A stretch of 39,585 nt of DNA. It comes from a virus. Shown in pieces: positions 10,401-39,585 of the stretch. The DNA lies in IMG/VR virus record IMGVR_UViG_3300008255_000055, positions 1 to 39,585 of that record; one strand, written 5' to 3'. A model generated the notes under the pieces. It searched no databases, had not been told where the DNA came from, and was given only the letters and a program-made list of their open reading frames with translations. The position numbers and the translations under genes were made by a program. Every line of letters begins with the position of its first letter. The first letter of the stretch is position 1.

Positions 10401-10711
10401 ATTCAACAAAATATGCTAATGCATACATAGAAACTATGATGCTAACTTCTCTAAAAAAAAGAAATAATGAAAGTATCGTGGAAAGAATTTCTGCTGATTA
10501 TATATCTTTACCAACAGATACAAGTATCACAATCGGAACTAAAACTAAATATGATACAAATTATGTACCACAAACAGTTATAACTGATCCTGTAAAAATG
10601 ACAGTTCAAACAAAATCAAGTACTCCTAAAATCGTAAATTTACAAATTAAATTTGGTTTAGTTTCAGATGGTAATAACTCACCTGAAATTGAAAATCTAG
10701 GAATTGTATGA
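7496..10711 (+). CDS. large tail (nozzle / tail tubular B-like) protein with about 7 beta-propeller-like repeats
   Basis: 1071 aa. Residues about 157-486 contain about 48-aa repeats (D-A-T-H..L.Y...G.IK.F.IDGSYNITQ). The ATGA overlap couples it to the next gene. Confidence 0.5.
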   Translation: MNTPLFPAGITGLSDTKWSGSQGNAHKLVGVDFRSTPGIIKAHQALKKISSTFAGEVETNIVDELCKVSIDLSDGTKLWFSSESGKIWQQTGDTFALVHTIDPTVDYNEPNSLVNGVVNDDDIDYAATLSIAENSAVYGTSELLSTNVLDASNGTENSLIDMGNYNVIAYSGVDQDGFIKTTTYSSTGSMTVEHTLEHDVSNGRYNSACKIDDTHFILAYQGGGSLTGFIKTFSVSAFYQSTQVASLEHDAASAQPTYNSLIKIDATHYALAYSGGASGHGYIKIFTIDGSYNITQTSTLTHDSSGATYGHKLVLVDATHLILSYANSSAAQIIKTFAIDGSWNVTQIDSETHVTAGGVYSSLIQLDATHYVWSGKDSTRGYMKVFALDGSYNITQVTSKDLFTTNEYASLLKNDENHIILASGTSTTGYMKVYSINSSYEIKELSTIDFNSLASKDTSILKDGRYITLVYSDSNNKNYSARLTISETYSNGIILNPAGDNKIQLIASSVISQTSMISQYLEDEIDIPENYSNLEVVVITAKGASSIPPVGATFAGVAMTEISNKQSALGFDAQLAFYGYKNPATGKSTIKVDFSQKTTYVSMIVLVFANVDQTTPVETTNDYGWKDYLTLPGDTDGQLRLGAFLTKVNSHSQGGFQDELASDNIAESSDRYTISVASRFFNIGTAKILSAAEFSYTQQEELATDTTQYKPRINFKKIYYANEYVLFAVPVDKISDWANNIETVGVFYNGDDTYHPMVKQNLELFIGDKIVIAKVDTSGNFIQETSFNVAEPERIQVLSTFDTDILIGTKDVNKARVLRWDTFSDSWLADDEVFENGINAFIKDDNFTYVSAGDYGRLYFYNGEKLNIQKRIPGIWDSTHKAIINENATGFYMGNPVFGLSNVTGNPTEQGIYGYGNYDTKYIKALSLDYPLPTDELSGVSIGSILVNGIDMYVSYKTATDVGVAKIDHSTKYANAYIETMMLTSLKKRNNESIVERISADYISLPTDTSITIGTKTKYDTNYVPQTVITDPVKMTVQTKSSTPKIVNLQIKFGLVSDGNNSPEIENLGIV

Positions 10712-11340
10712 TCATAGAAACTACAGAAAAAGATAATAACTTAGAACATAGAAGAAGGGGTGGAGCTTTTGATAGCTTGGCCAGGATTCTTCGTAGTATC
10801 AACAAAGCAGTTTTTGGTACAGGTACTGTGATTGAAGATCGCCCTGGAGTATTAAGTCCTAGTCAAGTTTCTGATCCAGCTACTTTTGTTAAATCAAAAA
10901 GTGTCTTTGAAATATATCAACAGAAAGAATCACAAAAGGATGAATATAACCTTATTTATATAGGCAGAAAAGGAACTGGTCAAAAAAGAAATACAAATTA
11001 TATTGAACTTGCTGCTAATTCAAAGTCAGATGAAACTAGTATTGGTAATGGATATGTTGGATTGACACTTGCAAGAGATGGAGAATCTTATAAAAAAGCT
11101 AAAATAGCTATGTATGAAGCTGGAAATTACCCAGATGAATTAAGTGGCAATGGTGCAAGAGCTGAAATAACAGGTGAAGGTGCAGGTGGTGGAGTACAAC
11201 TTACATATTTTAATGATGATGGTACATTTCTTGCTTTAGTTTTAGATGTAGATGGAGTACAAATTTATGGTTTACCAACATCTAATCCAGGTGGATCAAA
11301 TAAACTGTGGAATAGTGCTGGAACACTAAAAATTACGTAG
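10708..11340 (+). CDS. virion / tail-associated protein
   Basis: 210 aa. The C-terminal LPTSNPGGSNKLWNSAGTLKI motif is, from memory, common at the ends of phage tail or structural proteins. Confidence 0.4.
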   Translation: MIIETTEKDNNLEHRRRGGAFDSLARILRSINKAVFGTGTVIEDRPGVLSPSQVSDPATFVKSKSVFEIYQQKESQKDEYNLIYIGRKGTGQKRNTNYIELAANSKSDETSIGNGYVGLTLARDGESYKKAKIAMYEAGNYPDELSGNGARAEITGEGAGGGVQLTYFNDDGTFLALVLDVDGVQIYGLPTSNPGGSNKLWNSAGTLKIT

Positions 11341-11373: not shown

Positions 11374-12852
11374 ATGGCTATCTATAACAAAAACACAACA
11401 ACAGCAGAATATGGTAACAACAATTCAGCAGTTGGAGAATTACAAACTTATCTAAACTCTAAGGGTGCAAATTTAGCAGTTGATAATAAATATGGGCCTT
11501 TAACTCAAGCAGCAGTTGCAAAATATGGAACAAATTCTAATATTCCAAATCCTTCTCCTATAACATCTCCAGTAAAAGCAACTGATGTAAAACCTGCACC
11601 AAGTATAAATCTTCCTGAACCACAAGCTGGTAATATATATGATACATATACAACATCACTTGCTGGAAATGTTGATAATATAAGAACTAATCTTGAATCA
11701 ACATATAAAACACAATTAGCAGATGTTCAAGCAAAGAAAGATGCATTACAGAAGAAACAAGATGAAATGTTGAAAAATATTAATCCTGAAAATAGAGCAA
11801 CTTACGATCAAGAACAAAAAATAATGGTGAATGAATTAAATGCTGCAGAAGCTGCAAGTGGTACTATCGCTAGTGATTTTGCAAAACGTAGAGCTTTAAC
11901 TTCTGAATTAGATAATCTTTTGAATCAAGGAACTAATCTTATCAAACAGCAAAAAGGAATGGCAGTTGGCCAAGGAGTTATAAACAAAAGAGTGGCAAAC
12001 ACAATGACAGATATATCTGCTCGTACTGGAGTTATTGAAGCAGTATTTTCTGCATTAGATGGAAACATTTCACAAGCATATAATATAATTGGAAAAGCAA
12101 AAGAAACTGTTTCAGCTCAATGGAAAGATAATTTAGATTATTATGGTACTCTTTTGGATTTGAATAATAATAAGATTTTAAATCTAAATAAAGATGAAAA
12201 AGAAATTGCTGAAAAACAAGTTGCTTTGATTGAAGGTGATATGAAGAAGATAGATGCTACTGAAGAATATCTAAAGAAGATAATGATAGATCCTGAATCG
12301 GCCCAATTCGTTGCAGATGCTGGTATTAAACTTACTGATAGTGTAGAAGAAATAAATACAAAACTTGCTACTCAATCTAAAGTTGAAGAAATAAAAGATG
12401 CTAAGAATAAAATGGCCGAAGATGGTTATATATATGTACCATTTCCTGGTAAAAACACAGCAGGATTAGTGGCTATGTCAGCAGGTGATCAGACACTTTA
12501 TTTCAAAGAACCATTATCTAAGACTAAAACAACTGCATCTAAAACAGTAACAGCAACTCAAACTAAAAATATATTTGCAGACTTCTTGAAAACAGGTATA
12601 GCTCCAAGTGGAGAATCATTTGGTAATCCAATGGGAGCTGATGGATATGTAGATCCAGGAGTTTATATTGCTGCATTTACTGAATGGCCAGGAACAACAA
12701 AAGACTTTCTATTACAATTTCCAATTAAACAATACGTAAACCCAGAATCATATTCTAAACTTCCTGCTGCATTACAAGAAACTCTAAAATCTAAATCAGA
12801 TTCAGCTTCAGGTATGTCGGATGAAGCATTTTTAGAATTGTTAAATAAATAA
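11374..12852 (+). CDS. internal/ejected virion protein with an N-terminal peptidoglycan-binding (PG_binding_1-like) domain and a long coiled coil
   Basis: AVGELQTYLNSKGANLAVDNKYGPLTQAAVAKYG matches the PG_binding_1 pattern. The rest is helical, with no visible catalytic motif. Confidence 0.55.
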   Translation: MAIYNKNTTTAEYGNNNSAVGELQTYLNSKGANLAVDNKYGPLTQAAVAKYGTNSNIPNPSPITSPVKATDVKPAPSINLPEPQAGNIYDTYTTSLAGNVDNIRTNLESTYKTQLADVQAKKDALQKKQDEMLKNINPENRATYDQEQKIMVNELNAAEAASGTIASDFAKRRALTSELDNLLNQGTNLIKQQKGMAVGQGVINKRVANTMTDISARTGVIEAVFSALDGNISQAYNIIGKAKETVSAQWKDNLDYYGTLLDLNNNKILNLNKDEKEIAEKQVALIEGDMKKIDATEEYLKKIMIDPESAQFVADAGIKLTDSVEEINTKLATQSKVEEIKDAKNKMAEDGYIYVPFPGKNTAGLVAMSAGDQTLYFKEPLSKTKTTASKTVTATQTKNIFADFLKTGIAPSGESFGNPMGADGYVDPGVYIAAFTEWPGTTKDFLLQFPIKQYVNPESYSKLPAALQETLKSKSDSASGMSDEAFLELLNK

Positions 12853-12861
12853 TAAAATATT

Positions 12862-15621
12862 ATGGCTAATTTTTGGGGTAAATTATTTGGAAAAAAAGAA
12901 TCTCCAGTATTTAAAGTTAGAGTTGGAGAAGGAATGACTGATGAGCAAACTAAAAAGGCTTATGAAGTTATTGCAACACCTGATACAGCTATGCAAGAAG
13001 CGAAGGCTAAAAGTTTCTGGGGTAAAACAAAAGCATTATATACACCTGTAGAAACAGATGTACGTTTTCCATTTCAAGTAGAACCAACTAGAGTAGAAGC
13101 AGCACCGATAACTAAGGCTGCAGCTAGAATGACTTATGATCTTATTGAAGCTATTCCACGTTTTGTGGCCACAGTAGGTGGAGAAATTAAAGCAGGATTT
13201 CAGCCAACAGAAGTAAAAGCAAATATAGATCTAAGACGTTTTGGTTTTGATAAACCTGAATATGTAACTGCATCTAAAGAATTTACTGATGCTATAAATA
13301 ATGGAGAAAATCCATGGGTAGCTGGATTAAGAACTGTATCTAATAAAACGTTAGATGTAGCTTTTGGTGCATCTATGCTAACTGATCTAGCTAAAATGAG
13401 TACTGCTGTATTATTACGTGGTGGTGCTGAAGCTAGAGTTGAAGCACAAAGCGTAGTTGATGCTATGAAGGCAAATCAAAAAGCTACATTTGAAAGATTA
13501 AAAAATGCTCCATTAGAACAACGTGAAAAAGCTTTAGCTGAAATATCAAACGCTAAAAGTAAAGCTGAAAAAGTTTTAAATGAATTAGGTAAACCAACTG
13601 CTGCTGATAGATTAAAAATAAAAGCATCTCGTTATACAGAAGTATTAGGTAGAGAAACAGCAATCAAAAAAGGGTTCTGGGGTGATTTTGCTAAACCTGA
13701 TTTTAGTTTAAAAACTCCAGGTACTACAAAAGCTCCTATTCTTGAAGTTAAACAACTTCCTGGTACACGTGAAACACCAGGCCAAGCTCCAGCTATGGGC
13801 CTATCAATGAAGAAAGTAGAACAAGTTGGTAAAGAAGAAGCTAGACTAGCAGTTTCAAAAGAACTTGCTGCATATAAAGATACTCCACTTACTGTAAATG
13901 GTAAGCCTTACATAATTGATACTGATAGTGAATTTAGATTAATGCAGTTGAAAGACAAAGATGCAAGTGGAAAAACATTAACTGATAAAGAAGTTAAAGA
14001 AGCAGTTGAAGCTTTTACAAAACTCGGTATTGATCCATTCAAAGTATATCCAACAGAACTTCCTAAACCTGAAATACCCAAATATGAATCGTTAGATGAT
14101 TTTATAAATGAGAAACCTACTAAGCCTAAAAAAGTAACTGAAGAAGAAAAAAGCCTAATAACAATACATAATTTAAGCGAACAAAAATTAATGTTTGCTA
14201 ATAAGATTGGTGGTGGATTAGCTAATCCATCAATGGCAGTTATAGATCCACGTAAAACACAATTTGATAATTATGGAGATATTACATTAGTTTCTAAACC
14301 TAGTCTTATACAAGGAGAAAAAACGCATCTAGCAGATGCATATTCTCCACGCTTTCCATCAGTACATACCACAATGAAATGGGATGATTATTACAAATTA
14401 GAAAAAGATTTTAAACCCTGGATGGAAAAAGTGCAGAAATCAGGAGCTAGTGAATATAGATCTGCTATATCACATGATGATACTGAAATGGTTAGAAATA
14501 TTGAAAACTCTCCAGCAGTTGCCCTTAAATTCCTAGAAGAAAAAGGTATAGCACCTTCACCTGAAGGTTATTCTTATTACCATTCACAAATCCAGGAGAA
14601 TGGATTAAATGGTGAGTTCCAAAAGTATTTAGATAATATATATGAAAAATATAACTTACAAGAAAAAATGTTTGCTGGATATACCAATAGTGGCCAACGA
14701 AGATACAAGCCAGTAAACTTACAAGAAGCAAGTAAAATAATGGGCAAACAAAAAGAAGAAGGAATGAATTACGGTCTTGGTTCTTATCGTTCAAAAATTG
14801 CTCCAGTTAAAAGAACACTATCTGAAATAAAGAAAGAAGCAAAGAGACTTGTATCTAAAGAAGATTTTGAAATAGTTAAAGATAAATACTGGAAAGAGTT
14901 AGGAGATCTCCAGGATAAATTACAACCATACGCAAAGGTATATGATAGTAATTCATTTATAGAAAATGATAACCAAATGAATACTATTGGTGCTGTTCTT
15001 AGTGGTGAGAAAGATGCTATGAGATATTTCAATTCTAAATTCCCTGATGCTCCACAAGAAATAATTAATGAAGTTATAGCATTTAGAAATAAATTGAGAA
15101 CAATGCCAACTGAATATTTTGAAACTAAATTTAAAAGGCCAGTTTATCTTAATGAATTTAGTAAGGCTATTGTTCCTGAAGATATTTCAAAAGAAGCAAA
15201 AGATATGCTTGAATCTTATGGGCTTGAAGTACAAACATATAAGAAGGGTGAAAGGGGTAAATTAATGGTGGATTTATTACAGACTGATACAGCATTTAGA
15301 AAAACACCTATCTTTAACAAAGATGTAAAAATGAGTTCTAAAGAAGTTTATGATGCTATATTTAAAGATATAGAAAAAGCTGGTTTTACTGAAAAAGATT
15401 TGAAGGTCTTATTTACTGATGAAGTAATTAATGGTAATTCATTAGGAGCTTTTGAAAAAGAAAATAGATGGTTAGGAGATATTGTAAGACTATATGAAAA
15501 AGAAGGAAAAGTAGGAATAGTAACAGCATTACATGAATCAAAACATTTCTTATTTTCAAAACTATCACCACAACTCCAGGCTGAAGCTAGAGCATTGGCC
15601 AAAGAAAGAATGGGTGTATAG
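12862..15621 (+). CDS. N-terminal portion of a giant polyvalent-type internal virion protein; carries an HExxH zincin motif near its end; terminates at an in-frame TAG
   Basis: 919 aa. HESKH lies at nt 15532-15546, 24 codons before the TAG. Same frame as 15970..19269. Confidence 0.7.
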   Translation: MANFWGKLFGKKESPVFKVRVGEGMTDEQTKKAYEVIATPDTAMQEAKAKSFWGKTKALYTPVETDVRFPFQVEPTRVEAAPITKAAARMTYDLIEAIPRFVATVGGEIKAGFQPTEVKANIDLRRFGFDKPEYVTASKEFTDAINNGENPWVAGLRTVSNKTLDVAFGASMLTDLAKMSTAVLLRGGAEARVEAQSVVDAMKANQKATFERLKNAPLEQREKALAEISNAKSKAEKVLNELGKPTAADRLKIKASRYTEVLGRETAIKKGFWGDFAKPDFSLKTPGTTKAPILEVKQLPGTRETPGQAPAMGLSMKKVEQVGKEEARLAVSKELAAYKDTPLTVNGKPYIIDTDSEFRLMQLKDKDASGKTLTDKEVKEAVEAFTKLGIDPFKVYPTELPKPEIPKYESLDDFINEKPTKPKKVTEEEKSLITIHNLSEQKLMFANKIGGGLANPSMAVIDPRKTQFDNYGDITLVSKPSLIQGEKTHLADAYSPRFPSVHTTMKWDDYYKLEKDFKPWMEKVQKSGASEYRSAISHDDTEMVRNIENSPAVALKFLEEKGIAPSPEGYSYYHSQIQENGLNGEFQKYLDNIYEKYNLQEKMFAGYTNSGQRRYKPVNLQEASKIMGKQKEEGMNYGLGSYRSKIAPVKRTLSEIKKEAKRLVSKEDFEIVKDKYWKELGDLQDKLQPYAKVYDSNSFIENDNQMNTIGAVLSGEKDAMRYFNSKFPDAPQEIINEVIAFRNKLRTMPTEYFETKFKRPVYLNEFSKAIVPEDISKEAKDMLESYGLEVQTYKKGERGKLMVDLLQTDTAFRKTPIFNKDVKMSSKEVYDAIFKDIEKAGFTEKDLKVLFTDEVINGNSLGAFEKENRWLGDIVRLYEKEGKVGIVTALHESKHFLFSKLSPQLQAEARALAKERMGV
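15619..15621 (+). other. single in-frame TAG interrupting a 2,135-codon reading frame (12862..19269)
   Basis: Hand translation of 15622-15969 gives 116 sense codons with no stop and no ATG, GTG or TTG. Confidence 0.9.
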
Positions 15622-15969
15622 TATCGTGGAGTACTAGAGAAAGCATATAAAGAAGAAGGCTTATATCAAGGAGCTGGTAGAGAAGATGCTTTATTAGAAG
15701 AATATATAGTAGATAAATGGTCTAAGGCCCAAGCTAGTGCAGAATATGGATATAATAGATCTATTTATTCACGTATATTTGAAGCATTAGATAAGATAGT
15801 TACAAAAATAGTAAAGACGTATAATAAAATAAAAGATTATATAAAATCTATCCCAAATAAACAGGGTGGGTTTGTTCGCATAATACCTGAAACATCAAAG
15901 AATTTAGAAGGCATTAAAGATCAAATTACTTTCTTAGAACAAAGTCTATCAGAACATCCAGGAAAAATA
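15622..15969 (+). other. start-less open frame linking the two giant ORFs (YRGVLEKAYKEEGLYQGAGREDALLEEYIVDKW...)
   Basis: Composition is coding-like and matches its neighbours. It has no canonical initiation codon, which implies readthrough, bypass, a nonsense mutation or a sequencing error. Confidence 0.7.
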
Positions 15970-18900
15970 TTGATGAAGTATGTATCTAAAACCACAGGAT
16001 TACTACCAGAAATTACAGGTAAAAAAACAATGATGTCTTTAACTGGTTCAGGTAAAGAAGTTAAGACAAGTAAGTTTGGAATTGAAGGTGATCAGATTCT
16101 CCAGGAGATTGCAGGTTATGGGAAAGATCCAAATGAAATTTTAGAACAATATAAATCTATAAAAGAAAATGTTGAATCTCTTAAACAACAAGTAAGAGAA
16201 GCAAAAAGTGCAGAGACATTGCAGAAAATAAGCGAAAAACTAGCAAAACATCAAGAAAAGATGATACAATTTGCAGAAAAATATCCTAAATTAGCTACTT
16301 TAACTACAAAACTATCAGAAGAAGCTACAAAAGGAGCAATAAAAGGATATAAACTAGGTACAGAAGTTGCTTCTAGGGAGATTAAAAGGGAAGTAATGAC
16401 TAAAATTAAAGCTGCATACGATAAAAAGATTGAAGGAATTAAGGATGCTAAAGATATTTTAGCTAATCGTAGAAGTCTCATAAAGGCTGTTACAAAACAA
16501 TTTGGATTATCTGATGCCGATCTTAAAACAATTACACGTAGAGATATACGTTTAATGTCTAATTTTGAGTTTAAACAATTTCTTGATGATATTCGTGCTA
16601 AATCTGAAGAATTTATGGTACGCAGACAGGCCCAGAATGAGCTTATAGGTCAAATAAATGAGAAGGAATTAAACGTAGAACCATTACGAGAAGCTATGAA
16701 GTTGCCACCTATATCTCAAATGAGTACAGAGCAATTACGTACATTAGATGCTACTCTTGAACCATACCAAAAGGGTGATAGATTTTTATCTAAACGTAAA
16801 TTAGAAACTATAGATCGTACTGATTTAAGTGGAATAAAAACATATCGTGAAGCACGTGAGATTCTAGCTAAAAAAATTGGAGTAAAAGAAGAAGATCTAA
16901 ACAAAATCAAAATCAATGAGTTTGATCGTTTTAAGAATTTCGCAGCATTGAATGAAAAAGATCCTTTCTTTAAAATGATAACTGAAGAAACAGCAAAATT
17001 AAAACTCCAGGCCGAAGCTGAATATCTTGAAATAGAATCAAAAGCAAATAAACTAGCAAAGAAAATAAAAACTTCTTTCATCCAAAAGCTTATACCACAG
17101 CAAAAAAATATCAGAGCTTGGTTTGAAGCCAAAGATAAAAATACAGTTAGATTAACAAAAGAAGAATCAGAGCTTGCTAATTTCATGGTTCAAGAATGGA
17201 GTAAAGCAAGAGAACAACTTGTATTAAACCAAGTAATTAAAAAAGGAATAAATAATGATAATTACTTTACGCATATTCGTAGGGGTGTTTTAGAAGCGAT
17301 AAAAGAAGATGGCTTGAAACAAGCATTTAAAGAAGTCTTTGATCAATACAGAATGGATGAAGCTAATTTTAATATAATGGATACTGAAACAGGAGAAGTA
17401 CTTGCTATGGATAAATTCTTTAGATTTGCGTTAAGACGTACAGGAGAATTAAAACCAACAGAAAATATATTAGGTGCTTTCTTAAACTATATGAAGATGT
17501 TTAAAAAGAAGCAGGCCCTAGATGAAATAGTACCTTTAATAGATACTTATGCACAGCTCCTTACACCACCTGGTACAACTGAAAAAGGGTTGCTTCTTCA
17601 TGGTGATATGATTCGCTTTATGAAAGAATGGTTAAATACTCAAAAAGGCAGACGTATAACACTTTTATCTAAACAAGGTGGAAAGATTGATTGGGCTTTA
17701 AAATCTACAAAGGCATTAACTACACTACTTGATATTGGGTTGAACCTTCCAGTATCTGTTGCTACTCAAATTGGAGAACAAGCAATACAATATCAATTAC
17801 TTGGAAAAAGTAAATTCTTGAAAGCAAAAGTTCGTGCATTAACAAAACGTGGCCGAAGAATAACTACTAAGTATAGAAACGTAGTTGGTAAAAATCCCTG
17901 GTCTCAATTAGTTGAACCAATGAGATCTATTGGTGATAGATTAAATGAAGGTGTCTTTGTCTTATTCCAGGATGCAAACGTCAGACGTAATCGTAATGCC
18001 CTTCTTGGTATGATGACTAAAGAAGAATGGAAAAATGAAACTCTATCTCCTGAAAGACTAGCTCAAATACAAATAGCTACAAGTAGATATGGAGTAGTTG
18101 AAGGATTGGGATCTATTATCGGTGCTACTCCTGAATCTAAAATTGCTACACAATACAAAACATGGGCAATTCCTATTATGCAATCACAGGTAAAAAATCT
18201 TACATACATGTTGAAGTATTTAAAATCACTTGGTAAGGCAAATAAAAAAGAAGCTGCTAGAGCATTACGTGAAACTTGGAGAATGTTAGAACTTGGAGCA
18301 TTTGTTGCTATTGTTGGATCTGCTTTTGTTGATAAAGATGATGATACAATGTTGGGTAAATTAAAACAAAGAGCTTATACAGAAGCTTTAACATTATTTG
18401 GTGCTGCACCAGTATTAGCTACAGTTCCTAGAATGATCTCATTTGTTACAGATCTAGCAAACAATACTATTTCATTATTAAAGATGGAAGAATATGAAGC
18501 ATCTAAATTTGGAGAGTATGAAGTTGGTGATCTAAAAGGAGCAAAAGCATTAAAGAAAATGGTAACTCCACGTGCTATAAAACAATTCCAAACTACACCA
18601 GTAAAAACAATAGAAGATGTAAAAGCAGAAATTAAAGCTGATATTGAATCAGGTACTTTATCTATATCTGCAGCTAAAGAAAAATATGTTAGTGAATTAC
18701 AAAAACTTGATGTTGCTGAAAAGAAAGCTAGGTTTAAATTGAAACCAGATGAATATAAAAAGGATCTATCAGAAAGAATAAAAAACAAAGAGATAACAAT
18801 ATCAGAAGCAAAAGAAGAATATATTGATTATACAGAAACTAATATTGATTCATTTAAAAGCCCAGACGAAGGATCATTTATAGATAAAGTTATCTTATAT

Positions 18901-19269
18901 GCAAAGGCAATAGGAACTGATCCAGTAACTGCTTCTATCTATCTATTCCAGGGAGAAAAAATACGTAGAATTGATAATGGTGCAATCATAGTAGAACGCT
19001 TACCATTAGTTGAATCAGCATTAATTAAGAAACAACAAGGAGCTACAAAAGATATGAATCTTGATCATACAATTCCATTACAATTAGGTGGTAGTAATGC
19101 TAAGTCTAACTTAAGATTAGTTGATACTGATGAATGGGCCAGCTATACACCAGTTGAAAACTATCTAGGTAATAAACTTAGAGCAGGATTAATTGACAAA
19201 AAAGAAGCACAAAGCTTGATTAAAGATTTTAAGGATGGTAAAATTACTAAAGAAGAAATAATGAAATAA
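15970..19269 (+). CDS. C-terminal portion of the giant internal virion protein: coiled coils, hydrophobic segments, C-terminal HNH-like (His-Me finger) motif
   Basis: 1099 aa from the TTG/ATG at 15970/15973. The motif LDHTIPLQLGGSNAKSNLRLV is encoded at about 19057-19125. Hydrophobic stretches include LELGAFVAIVGSAFV. Confidence 0.65.
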   Translation: MMKYVSKTTGLLPEITGKKTMMSLTGSGKEVKTSKFGIEGDQILQEIAGYGKDPNEILEQYKSIKENVESLKQQVREAKSAETLQKISEKLAKHQEKMIQFAEKYPKLATLTTKLSEEATKGAIKGYKLGTEVASREIKREVMTKIKAAYDKKIEGIKDAKDILANRRSLIKAVTKQFGLSDADLKTITRRDIRLMSNFEFKQFLDDIRAKSEEFMVRRQAQNELIGQINEKELNVEPLREAMKLPPISQMSTEQLRTLDATLEPYQKGDRFLSKRKLETIDRTDLSGIKTYREAREILAKKIGVKEEDLNKIKINEFDRFKNFAALNEKDPFFKMITEETAKLKLQAEAEYLEIESKANKLAKKIKTSFIQKLIPQQKNIRAWFEAKDKNTVRLTKEESELANFMVQEWSKAREQLVLNQVIKKGINNDNYFTHIRRGVLEAIKEDGLKQAFKEVFDQYRMDEANFNIMDTETGEVLAMDKFFRFALRRTGELKPTENILGAFLNYMKMFKKKQALDEIVPLIDTYAQLLTPPGTTEKGLLLHGDMIRFMKEWLNTQKGRRITLLSKQGGKIDWALKSTKALTTLLDIGLNLPVSVATQIGEQAIQYQLLGKSKFLKAKVRALTKRGRRITTKYRNVVGKNPWSQLVEPMRSIGDRLNEGVFVLFQDANVRRNRNALLGMMTKEEWKNETLSPERLAQIQIATSRYGVVEGLGSIIGATPESKIATQYKTWAIPIMQSQVKNLTYMLKYLKSLGKANKKEAARALRETWRMLELGAFVAIVGSAFVDKDDDTMLGKLKQRAYTEALTLFGAAPVLATVPRMISFVTDLANNTISLLKMEEYEASKFGEYEVGDLKGAKALKKMVTPRAIKQFQTTPVKTIEDVKAEIKADIESGTLSISAAKEKYVSELQKLDVAEKKARFKLKPDEYKKDLSERIKNKEITISEAKEEYIDYTETNIDSFKSPDEGSFIDKVILYAKAIGTDPVTASIYLFQGEKIRRIDNGAIIVERLPLVESALIKKQQGATKDMNLDHTIPLQLGGSNAKSNLRLVDTDEWASYTPVENYLGNKLRAGLIDKKEAQSLIKDFKDGKITKEEIMK

Positions 19270-19291
19270 TTATTAATTAACTATTAAAAAA

Positions 19292-21377: not shown

Positions 21378-21448
21378 TGCGGTTTAGTGTAATAGCAGCA
21401 CGTGTGGCCCATAACCACAAAGAACTTGTGCAAATCAAGAAATCGCAA
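21378..21448 (+). tRNA. tRNA with CAU anticodon (Met or Ile2-type), atypical (C33, G55)
   Basis: Hand-folded cloverleaf: acceptor TGCGGTT/AATCGCA, D stem GTGT/GCAC, anticodon stem TGTGG/CCACA, loop CCCATAA. The T arm has only 4 bp with loop TGCAAAT. Confidence 0.55.
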
Positions 21449-21452
21449 CATT

Positions 21453-21523
21453 TTCCAGGTCGTCTAACGATAGGACATCAGGTTTTGATCCTGAGAATCG
21501 TGGTTTGAATCCATGCCTGGAAA
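21453..21523 (+). tRNA. tRNA-Gln (UUG)
   Basis: Acceptor TTCCAGG/CCTGGAA (U1-A72), D stem GTCT/GGAC, anticodon stem TCAGG/CCTGA, loop TTTTGAT, T arm CGTGG-TTTGAAT-CCATG. Confidence 0.75.
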
Positions 21524-21526
21524 CAT

Positions 21527-21598
21527 GGGGAATATGGTGTAGTGGTAGCACGTCTCGCTGTGAACGAGTTAGGGATAGTTCAATTCTATCTTTTCCCC
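21527..21598 (+). tRNA. tRNA-His (GUG) with genome-encoded G-1 opposite C73
   Basis: An extra 5' G precedes acceptor GGGAATA/TTTTCCC. D loop AGTGGTA, anticodon loop CTGTGAA, T arm GATAG-TTCAATT-CTATC, discriminator C. Confidence 0.85.
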
Positions 21599-21627
21599 CA
21601 AATAAACTGTTCTTTAAACAATAAGTT

Positions 21628-31566: not shown

Positions 31567-31894
31567 AGAAGAAAGACAAAGGACTTTATTACAGAATCGT
31601 GCCTTACACAAAGGTTTTCAAGAGATTGCTGATATTCTAGTAGAGAATGGTGTATCACTACAAAAAGCTTTTAAAGATTTAGAAATAAGGCCAACAAAAG
31701 AAAGTATTAAAAGTATTTTTCGCCAGGTGGCAAACGCAAAGTTTGAAGTAACAAGCACAACAGAACTTACAACAAAACAAATTGATCAAGTCTGGGAAGA
31801 TGTTACAAAAGCATTATCAGAAAATACAGGTGTTTACTTTCCATTTCCAAGTTACGAACAAACCGATAGTTATATTAATTCATTTAAACAATAA
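31559..31894 (+). CDS. NinB-like recombination mediator candidate
   Basis: RTLLQNRALHKGFQEIADIL parallels lambda NinB RSLDQNRKLWACLGDVS. The ATG at 31559 is preferred over 31535. Confidence 0.4.
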   Translation: MDKEERQRTLLQNRALHKGFQEIADILVENGVSLQKAFKDLEIRPTKESIKSIFRQVANAKFEVTSTTELTTKQIDQVWEDVTKALSENTGVYFPFPSYEQTDSYINSFKQ

Positions 31895-31898
31895 TTAT

Positions 31899-32189
31899 AT
31901 GTTAACTCAAAAACAAAAAGATAATCTCCAGGAGAAAAGAACAAGGTATACCAACATGGTTAAACCAGACAGAAAGTATACCAGCGAAGAAATAGTTTTA
32001 AACTTTCTAGCTGAATTTCCTGATGTATGGTTTTATACTTGGGATCTAGCTGGTAATACAAAATGGGGTTTCCTATCCCATGCTACTCATGCAACACTAA
32101 GGAAAGCAGAACAGAAAGGATTAATTATTAAGGATTATGTAGGTAAGTATGTGGTCTATACTCACAAGAATAAGGAAACTTTATTTTAG
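31899..32189 (+). CDS. hypothetical protein (96 aa), possibly winged-helix
   Basis: The ATG at 31899 lies just after the upstream stop. The ORF-track extension from 31782 overlaps the previous gene. Confidence 0.4.
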   Translation: MLTQKQKDNLQEKRTRYTNMVKPDRKYTSEEIVLNFLAEFPDVWFYTWDLAGNTKWGFLSHATHATLRKAEQKGLIIKDYVGKYVVYTHKNKETLF

Positions 32190-35903: not shown

Positions 35904-36119
35904 ATGGTAATAATCAATCCTTTATTAAAGGAAAAATTAGAAAAAGAGTTATTGAAATCAGATCAAGACGACATATTACTTCCTGGAAAGCTACAGTATA
36001 AAAAGGAAATGGCAGACATGTTTGATGATATGACTAATCCTTTAAAGATAGAAGAAAGAAAGTTAAAAAAGAGACGTAGTGAGTTTAAAAAAAAGAATAT
36101 GGCGAAGGTCGGTCTCTAG
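35904..36119 (+). CDS. hypothetical protein (71 aa)
   Basis: ORF tightly packed against its neighbours; ends in TAG. Confidence 0.4.
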   Translation: MVIINPLLKEKLEKELLKSDQDDILLPGKLQYKKEMADMFDDMTNPLKIEERKLKKRRSEFKKKNMAKVGL

Positions 36120-39363: not shown

Positions 39364-39585
39364 ATGGAAAAGAAATATAAAGTTTTAAAAAAGTTTGATG
39401 GTTATAAAAAAGGAGACATCCTTGACATAACATCTTACACAGAAGAAGATCTTGTTGAGATGGTTGAAAAATCTTTGATTGAAGAAGTAATTGAAGATAC
39501 ACCTGATCTTGATGGAGAAGTAATTGAAGATACACCTGATCTTGATGGAGAAGTAATTGAAGATACACCTGATCTTGATGGAGAA
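39364..39585 (+). CDS. 5' part of the acidic tandem-repeat protein (continues at 120..329 after collapsing the overlap)
   Basis: ATG at 39364. Translation gives MEKKYKVLKKFDGYKKGDILDITSYTEEDLVEMVEKSLIEEVIEDTPDLDG..., open to the window end. Confidence 0.7.
   Translation, partial: MEKKYKVLKKFDGYKKGDILDITSYTEEDLVEMVEKSLIEEVIEDTPDLDGEVIEDTPDLDGEVIEDTPDLDGE
39467..39585 (+). repeat. 119-bp terminal overlap identical to 1..119 (circular contig closure)
   Basis: Base-by-base comparison: 20 nt of unique flank plus three 33-bp units. Confidence 0.9.

Follow-up and report, generated by a model that had tools for sequence, protein, structure and literature searches.

We found that one T-to-A difference, confined to a single assembly, creates the in-frame TAG interrupting a giant gene in the window (the whole stretch of viral DNA analyzed, 39,585 nucleotides), and that sibling assemblies of the same phage carry TTG (Leu) there. 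Our verdict is that TTG became TAG in this assembly only, within the gene for an ordinary polyvalent virion protein of a phage, either through an error in the consensus or as a one-off nonsense allele. An earlier note on this DNA had listed both "recent nonsense mutation" and "assembly error" among its explanations, and the evidence points to them. Two siblings were compared, which together with the window make three assemblies, possibly from non-independent samples. Contig k141_277237 of ENA assembly ERZ27293386 (L004) showed one mismatch in 26,408 bp, at position 15620 (A here, T there), and contig Ga0210043_1001778 of JGI assembly 3300025018 (L009) showed one in 14,935 bp, again at base 15620 (A vs T). 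The remaining compared stretches were 100% identical to the window except for the terminal tandem repeat. The protein encoded by the ENA contig (P0031) is continuous over 2135 aa, reads 'KERMGVLYRG' across the site, and differs solely in having Leu920. The earlier note had suggested checking whether the stop is conserved in homologous genomes; it is instead replaced by a sense codon, which is TTG in the two assemblies of the same genome.

The sequence-level description in that note (one frame, one TAG, 116 start-free codons, and a HESKH motif 24 codons ahead of the TAG) held in every detail. In the translation of the window, the ORFs at 12862-15621 (919 aa, ended by TAG) and 15622-19269 share a frame, and the stop at codon 920 is the only internal one in 12862-19269. 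ATG, GTG, and TTG are absent from all 116 sense codons of 15622-15969, and the first start-like codons 3' of the TAG are TTG at 15970 and ATG at 15973, the latter being the start called by JGI (product P0001, 1098 aa). The public JGI record itself has the TAG, with 919-aa and 1098-aa products called, so the stop was not added by later handling. The features of the gene are listed in Table 1.

Table 1. Features of the interrupted gene (positions in the window)
Feature	Position	Strand	Remark
Composite gene, giant polyvalent virion-type protein (predicted)	12862..19269	+	2,135 codons; uninterrupted in sibling assemblies
PBECR5 predicted nuclease domain, aa 425-652	14134..14817	+	PF18814, E = 4.5e-15, 56.6 bits vs cutoff 25
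Zincin-like HExxH domain, aa 813-1009	15298..15888	+	Spans the TAG; from alignments and AlphaFold2 model
HESKH motif (H891, E892, H895)	15532..15546	+	All three positions invariant in all relatives
In-frame TAG, codon 920	15619..15621	+	Private base A at 15620; T in siblings, giving TTG (Leu)
Start-codon-free 116-codon stretch	15622..15969	+	C-terminal half of conserved HExxH domain plus linker, not a spacer
Invariant E946-E947-Y948	15697..15705	+	Candidate third zinc ligand; in helix after HExxH helix, 26 codons 3' of TAG
JGI gene caller start of downstream 1,098-aa ORF	15973..15975	+	ATG; internal Met in continuous relatives
C-terminal HNH-like motif (DHTIPLQLGGSN...NL)	19036..19113	+	HNH_5 and HNH below cutoffs

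The 116-codon gap resembles the interior of 27 giant proteins (E up to 2e-46), and every unambiguous match among these homologues puts it deep within a protein of 1.2-3.7 thousand aa. Judged by this homology, the gap is true coding sequence and not a chance open stretch. The closest of the relatives at this site (L003; 72% identical over the 116 codons) has ATG at the stop position, and its product P0003 is continuous over 2149 aa. In twelve further relatives (L002, P0004, P0006-P0014, and L015), the residue at the position of codon 920 is M, L, I, or T, and hence every relative compared has a sense codon there. DNA-level scans, which are free of gene-calling bias, returned continuous frames only. 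P0003 retains 'HPGKILMKYVSKTTG' within its continuous ORF, so that the equivalent of Met 15973 is internal; this Met is missing in L002. The possibility, raised in the earlier note, that relatives would encode two separate genes with proper starts found no instance, as each of them has one ORF. The two ORFs of the window are halves of a single ancestral gene, as the earlier note had linked them, and the continuous orthologues bear this out. We also considered a complex codon history, because TAG differs from the ATG of L003 by two bases and in the preceding wobble base; this was dropped, given that the siblings put the ancestor at TTG, one step away. Relative L002 comes from a municipal landfill, according to the literature on its sample accessions.

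Several searches were uninformative. Neither blastn nor tblastn against the GenBank phage collection gave matches, and a word-indexed protein search with the HExxH domain alone also gave none. With a 665-aa query, the same type of search yielded nothing beyond the ORF of the window itself and one relative of the N-terminal domain; coiled-coil words had probably crowded the list of candidates. Contigs of JGI metagenomes and of IMG/VR, scanned for exact DNA patterns from around the stop, gave no match, the window itself included.

The stop falls within the zincin-like HExxH domain, which is modeled with confidence. The alignment of this domain has 16 invariant residues, nine of them 3' of the stop (Y929, E946, E947, Y948, V950, W953, F973, L976, and D977). 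AlphaFold2 modeled the domain as one compact fold (pLDDT 85.8, pTM 0.79), with helices at 74-87 (HExxH), 91-104, 107-116 (containing the stop position, 108), and 125-150 (EEY) in the model numbering. Hence a single modeled domain does span the stop, which was a point the earlier note had left to structure prediction. The domain reaches no Pfam model. The best non-spurious Foldseek matches of the model were zincins, weak at E about 0.05-0.1, and the best match in a PDB profile search was likewise weak (E = 0.14) and names no family. At the C-terminus, the HNH-like motif reported earlier stood as a weak motif-level match, common to the C-termini of P0007, P0009, and P0010, but did not reach family level: both HNH_5 (PF14279; E = 0.006, 16.9 bits vs gathering cutoff 27.5) and HNH (PF01844; E = 0.021, 15.4 bits vs cutoff 21.4) fell below their Pfam cutoffs. 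N-terminal modules are exchanged freely among the relatives, with PBECR5 here and ART-PolyVal (PF18760) in L002. Upstream of the gene are genes for a major head protein, a tail fibre, an SU10-adaptor-like product, and a peptidoglycan-binding protein; on the downstream side, one gene is lysin-like with a peptidoglycan-binding product and another is holin-like. The PBECR5 match, well above its cutoff, and the site among late/virion genes support the view, already taken in the earlier note, that the product is a polyvalent virion-type protein, which would be one more member of a known phage class.

We propose that the real phage gene would be one 2,135-codon ORF with TTG (Leu) at codon 920. It would consist of a variable N-terminal region with PBECR5, the zincin-like HExxH domain, a coiled-coil region, a conserved C-terminal module, and an HNH-like tail. 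As far as the sequence can tell, nothing about the TAG is programmed: it is unconserved, divides a predicted catalytic domain, and has no recoding signal alongside. On balance, we lean towards the TAG not being a property of the phage, that is, towards an artefact of consensus building or base calling, or else a minority variant chosen by the assembler, although we infer the choice between artefact and true allele. About 4.4% of the possible single-base changes in the window would put a stop in a called gene; it is therefore plausible that one random change was nonsense, the more so as this window was chosen for its oddness. Selection should work against a real nonsense allele in so conserved a gene, and this tips the balance further toward an artefact. 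Against this, consensus substitution errors are rare in well-covered Illumina contigs.

The main competitor, which we regard as a serious but less probable explanation, is that the phage population of one sample really was dominated by a very recent amber (nonsense) allele, which knocked out or split the gene. The products would be a 919-aa N-terminal fragment, with PBECR5 intact and the zincin domain truncated, and, provided that translation begins anew at ATG 15973, the C-terminal 1,098 aa; an allele of this kind could persist briefly via co-infection with the wild type, or if the N-terminal effector part is dispensable. The TAG does stand in the deposited JGI assembly, and one clean base change separates it from the TTG of the siblings. 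The free swapping of N-terminal modules also fits, and the leader ahead of ATG 15973 ('ggaaaaatattgATG') is rich in A/T and free of a Shine-Dalgarno sequence, much like those of other genes in this phage (e.g., 'aaataaaatattATG' at 12862), making independent initiation conceivable. However, the allele is missing from the two siblings, no other mutation accompanies it and so it has no evolutionary history, and it would destroy the most conserved domain of the protein. Moreover, because Met 15973 is internal in the continuous P0003 and absent in L002, it did not evolve as a start. An extended form, in which the A at 15620 is the real majority allele and the phage a naturally occurring amber mutant in a virion gene that looks essential, perhaps tolerated via a host amber suppressor or separate expression from ATG 15973, seems improbable to us. 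If the C-terminal 1,098 aa were expressed in that way, the effector and conserved halves of a polyvalent protein would be able to work as separate polypeptides.

Readings in which the TAG is translated, or in which it ends a true gene, fared worse. Four other good ORFs of the window end in TAG (1171-2364, 10708-11340, 31782-32189, and 35904-36119), that of the major head protein among them, and reading through each of these terminators meets another stop after 0-36 codons. The tRNAs at 21378-21599 have CAU, UUG, and GUG anticodons, and none among the window's tRNAs has a CUA (suppressor) anticodon. The earlier note was thus right that TAG is a normal stop elsewhere, that the phage's three tRNAs include no suppressor, and that TAG, occurring in frame only once, is not recoded genome-wide. 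It is very unlikely that the UAG is functionally read through, by a host amber suppressor or the near-cognate phage tRNA-Gln(UUG), to give 919-aa and 2,135-aa isoforms. The phage does encode this tRNA and the 116 codons 3' of the TAG are intact coding sequence, but the recency of the mutation or error fully accounts for that intactness. To our knowledge, programmed readthrough sites are conserved, whereas this stop is not conserved even between otherwise identical genomes and occurs in no relative. The base following the TAG is T, as at the four normal TAG terminators, and the fold of 15600-15720 gave no sign of unusual downstream RNA structure (z = -0.94; 40 of 200 shuffles fold as well). Programmed readthrough, bypass, host suppression, and the speculative tRNA-Gln link of the earlier note are not supported, the site being TTG in the siblings and sense in every relative.

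Two truly separate genes with an untranslated spacer are even less credible. Such a layout is what the JGI gene caller annotated, but the supposed spacer is the best-conserved coding part of the family and completes one folded domain, and the single ORF of every relative speaks against it; the continuous P0031, P0003, L002, and L015 refute a two-gene design. Finally, reassignment of TAG to a sense codon, as in code-15-like recoded phages, can be dismissed almost entirely. Nothing but the one in-frame TAG speaks for it; a TAG-as-sense translation meaningfully extends this one gene only, and the four TAG-ended genes and the lack of a suppressor tRNA rule out genome-wide recoding.

These results call for caution, because a lone in-frame stop in a metagenomic contig can mimic recoding even where the downstream coding sequence is intact and no start is nearby. 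Comparison with sibling assemblies settles such apparent recoding at once. The deposited two-gene annotation (919 aa and 1098 aa) is better read as one 2,135-codon gene, and a search of predicted-protein databases will miss the 116 codons left uncalled; these contain half of the best-conserved domain.

Programmed stop-codon readthrough is exemplified by the A1 coat extension of Q-beta, and recoded phages read TAG as Gln. The likeness of the present gene to these is superficial, consisting of an in-frame stop with open coding sequence behind it, whereas the stop here is unconserved, is a normal terminator elsewhere in a phage lacking a suppressor tRNA, and splits a folded domain instead of lying at a domain or protein boundary. 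Closer are the classical amber (UAG) mutants of phage structural genes, in which one base changes a sense codon (TTG here) to TAG while the gene is otherwise intact and its downstream part undecayed. Nevertheless, those differ in that the TAG here is known from one metagenomic consensus only and may exist in no real particle, and in that no suppressor host is known for this phage. The protein itself compares best with the phage polyvalent proteins described by Iyer, Burroughs, Anand, de Souza, and Aravind (J Bacteriol 2017; PMC5512222). Those proteins are packaged in the virion and delivered to the host with the DNA, as the present protein may be; its HExxH domain lacks a Pfam model and matches zincin structures weakly, and no family could be assigned to its large conserved C-terminal module. 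The resemblance nonetheless extends to a giant product encoded among late/virion genes, with PBECR5, the HExxH domain, and the HNH-like tail within 2,135 aa, and to an N-terminal effector that is swapped among relatives. The predicted nuclease is of the PBECR family, as in that class, and the central HExxH domain, with the conserved Glu on the helix that comes next, may match the zincin layout expected in polyvalent proteins, namely an HExxH helix and then a helix with a conserved Glu (PMC5512222).

Read as one frame, 12862-19269 comprises 2,135 sense codons with a single stop among them, codon 920 (residue numbers below follow this composite). As the earlier note had described, the two ORFs of the giant virion-type gene share a frame, the TAG is the only stop inside it, and the 116 codons that follow contain no ATG, GTG or TTG; the HESKH motif also lies where it had been placed (table). 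In the public protein collection, the two halves P0030 and P0001 are stored as separate JGI proteins and the 116 codons between them belong to no called protein; protein-level searches for this genome therefore miss half of the domain that is best conserved in the family.

Features of the giant gene and its surroundings (nt, window coordinates; aa, composite protein)
Feature	Position	Strand	Remarks
P0030	12862-15621	+	JGI-called protein, 919 aa
PBECR5 predicted nuclease	aa 425-652	+	56.6 bits vs cutoff 25
HESKH	15532-15546		HExxH motif
In-frame TAG	15619-15621		codon 920
Start-free stretch	15622-15969		116 codons
Downstream ORF	15970-19269		frame of P0030
Earliest start-like codons past TAG	15970; 15973		TTG; ATG
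P0001	15973-19269	+	JGI-called protein, 1098 aa
Remaining parts of giant protein			HExxH domain, coiled-coil segments, large conserved C-terminal module, weak HNH-like tail
AlphaFold2 model elements	model residues (1 = aa 813)		beta strands; helix 74-87 (HExxH); a pair of short helices, stop position 108 in the second; long helix 125-150 with invariant EEY
Three tRNAs	21378-21599		CAU (21378-21448), UUG, GUG
Terminal repeat	9-158; 39475-39585		4.5 and 3.3 copies

The cluster holding the two JGI-called products also contains a 2,135-aa ENA protein, P0031, whose sole difference from the composite is Leu at 920 (local sequence KERMGVLYRG). Contig k141_277237 (ENA ERZ27293386; 39,379 bp) is the same genome, circularly permuted, and differs from the window at 1 of 26,408 aligned bases, position 15620, where the window has A and ENA has T (TAG vs TTG). 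Contig Ga0210043_1001778 (JGI sample 3300025018) spans the site and, over 14,935 bases, likewise differs at position 15620 alone; Logan contigs from SRR6053076 are 100% identical to the window and stop short of it. These assemblies showed no further differences outside the terminal tandem repeat. The stop, whose conservation the earlier note had proposed to check, is thus replaced by TTG in two sibling assemblies. The JGI 3300025018 and Logan SRR6053076 assemblies break at the same point in the giant gene (ending at 16308, restarting at 16315), which could reflect a coverage gap or local heterogeneity. The terminal repeat (33-nt unit TTGATGGAGAAGTAATTGAAGATACACCTGATC) codes for 11-aa units of a gene crossing the contig junction, and its presence at both ends marks the contig as a circular assembly with overlap; there, the ENA assembly departs from the window in repeat register or in copy number, as well as at base 39555.

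More distant relatives are likewise continuous. A syntenic 41-kb Logan contig (L003) encodes P0003, a 2,149-aa orthologue with 72% identity over the 116 codons and ATG at the TAG position; a landfill IMG/VR contig (L002) encodes a 1,664-aa orthologue with Met there, and the residue is M, L, I or T in the related proteins P0004 and P0006-P0014. Because predicted-protein databases are blind to stop-split genes, contigs were also scanned at the DNA level with patterns derived from the HExxH domain alignment, which returned continuous frames and no split ones.

Searched with full HMMER against a set of 1.84 billion representative proteins, the 116 residues gave 27 homologues (E-values down to 2e-46); the unambiguous ones are proteins of 1,163-3,681 aa, and all carry the stretch deep in their interior. 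Aligning the HExxH region of 12 relatives gave 16 invariant columns, among them H891, E892 and H895 of the motif before the stop and nine past it (Y929, E946, E947, Y948, V950, W953, F973, L976 and D977). Structure prediction of the fused sequence, which the earlier note had suggested, places one domain across the stop: residues 813-1009, modelled by AlphaFold2 with Leu as residue 920, are predicted with confidence (pLDDT 85.8, pTM 0.79) to form a single compact unit. The 116-codon stretch is the coding sequence of a single domain that the TAG cuts in two. The HExxH domain had no match in Pfam; a PDB profile search returned just FtsH (weak, E = 0.14), and the best non-spurious Foldseek matches were zincins (anthrax lethal factor, SPRTN, entry 3e11), weak at E about 0.05-0.1. 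Metallopeptidases of polyvalent proteins have a zincin layout, with an HExxH helix followed by a Glu-bearing helix (PMC5512222); the model fits this layout, and we tentatively regard the domain as a putative zincin.

One T-to-A step would turn the TTG of the otherwise identical genomes into TAG. The stop is absent from all relatives, lies one step from TTG, breaks a conserved fold and is accompanied by neither a suppressor tRNA nor downstream RNA structure (none found, z = −0.94); the TAG is therefore a private single-base event rather than a recoding signal. Of the single-base changes possible in the window, about 4.4% introduce a stop into a called gene, so one random nonsense change is unremarkable, particularly as the window was picked for oddness. 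An assembly error and a recent nonsense mutation, both among the earlier note's options, are the readings left. We lean towards a consensus artefact, or a minority variant picked by the assembler, because loss of the best-conserved domain should be selected against, no other mutations accompany the TAG, and both sibling assemblies lack it. The TAG was already part of the public JGI record, since JGI called both products, and did not arise downstream of it. That presence counts in favor of the alternative, an amber allele that is genuine, very recent and dominant in the window's sample, a serious possibility that we put below even odds on the same points of selection, missing companion mutations and sibling sequence. 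Under such an allele, the downstream half could be produced only from ATG 15973, whose A/T-rich leader resembles those of the phage's other genes, but continuous relatives have this Met as just another residue within the protein. None of the + strand genes is preceded by a Shine-Dalgarno sequence (e.g., 12837-12861 and 19267-19291); their A/T-rich leaders ('aaataaaatatt ATG') suggest that initiation in the host lineage does not depend on such sequences.

Three further explanations are effectively excluded by the comparative and sequence evidence. Programmed readthrough or suppression, host-supplied suppression included, is very improbable with the stop absent from all relatives and no suppressor tRNA or downstream structure. 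Still less credible is a two-gene design, given that the stretch completes one conserved domain and relatives' frames are continuous, and TAG reassignment has practically no chance: TAG ends four further good ORFs, the major head protein gene among them (beyond each, the next stop follows after 0-36 codons), none of the window's three tRNAs has a CUA anticodon, and treating TAG as sense meaningfully lengthens just the giant gene, in line with the earlier claims of genuine TAG stops, three tRNA identities and no genome-wide recoding. The tRNA (CAU), overlooked by ARAGORN, has an Rfam match of 46.1 bits and immediately precedes tRNA-Gln(UUG) and tRNA-His(GUG). Judged from the sequences compared, the anomaly does not belong to the genuine genetic make-up of the phage lineage.

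The giant gene was correctly recognized as encoding a polyvalent virion-type protein, given its predicted PBECR5 nuclease, HExxH domain and late-gene neighborhood (upstream, genes for head, tail-fibre, adaptor and peptidoglycan-binding proteins; downstream, lysin-like and holin-like genes). Its proposed C-terminal HNH-like motif (19036-19113) is weak; Pfam HNH models match only below thresholds. This C-terminal module ('DHTIPLQLGGSN...NLKLV') is common to the otherwise divergent giants P0007, P0009 and P0010 and absent in L002. The L002 gene (8264-13258) carries ART-PolyVal (PF18760, E = 4e-22) in place of PBECR5, and P0002 (L001 181-1818) is a stand-alone 545-aa protein with the PBECR5 region that ends ahead of the HExxH domain. 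N-terminal effector swapping is typical of polyvalent proteins (PMC5512222), and the window's relatives likewise exchange their N-terminal effector module; the giant gene is a further member of this known class of phage polyvalent virion-type proteins.
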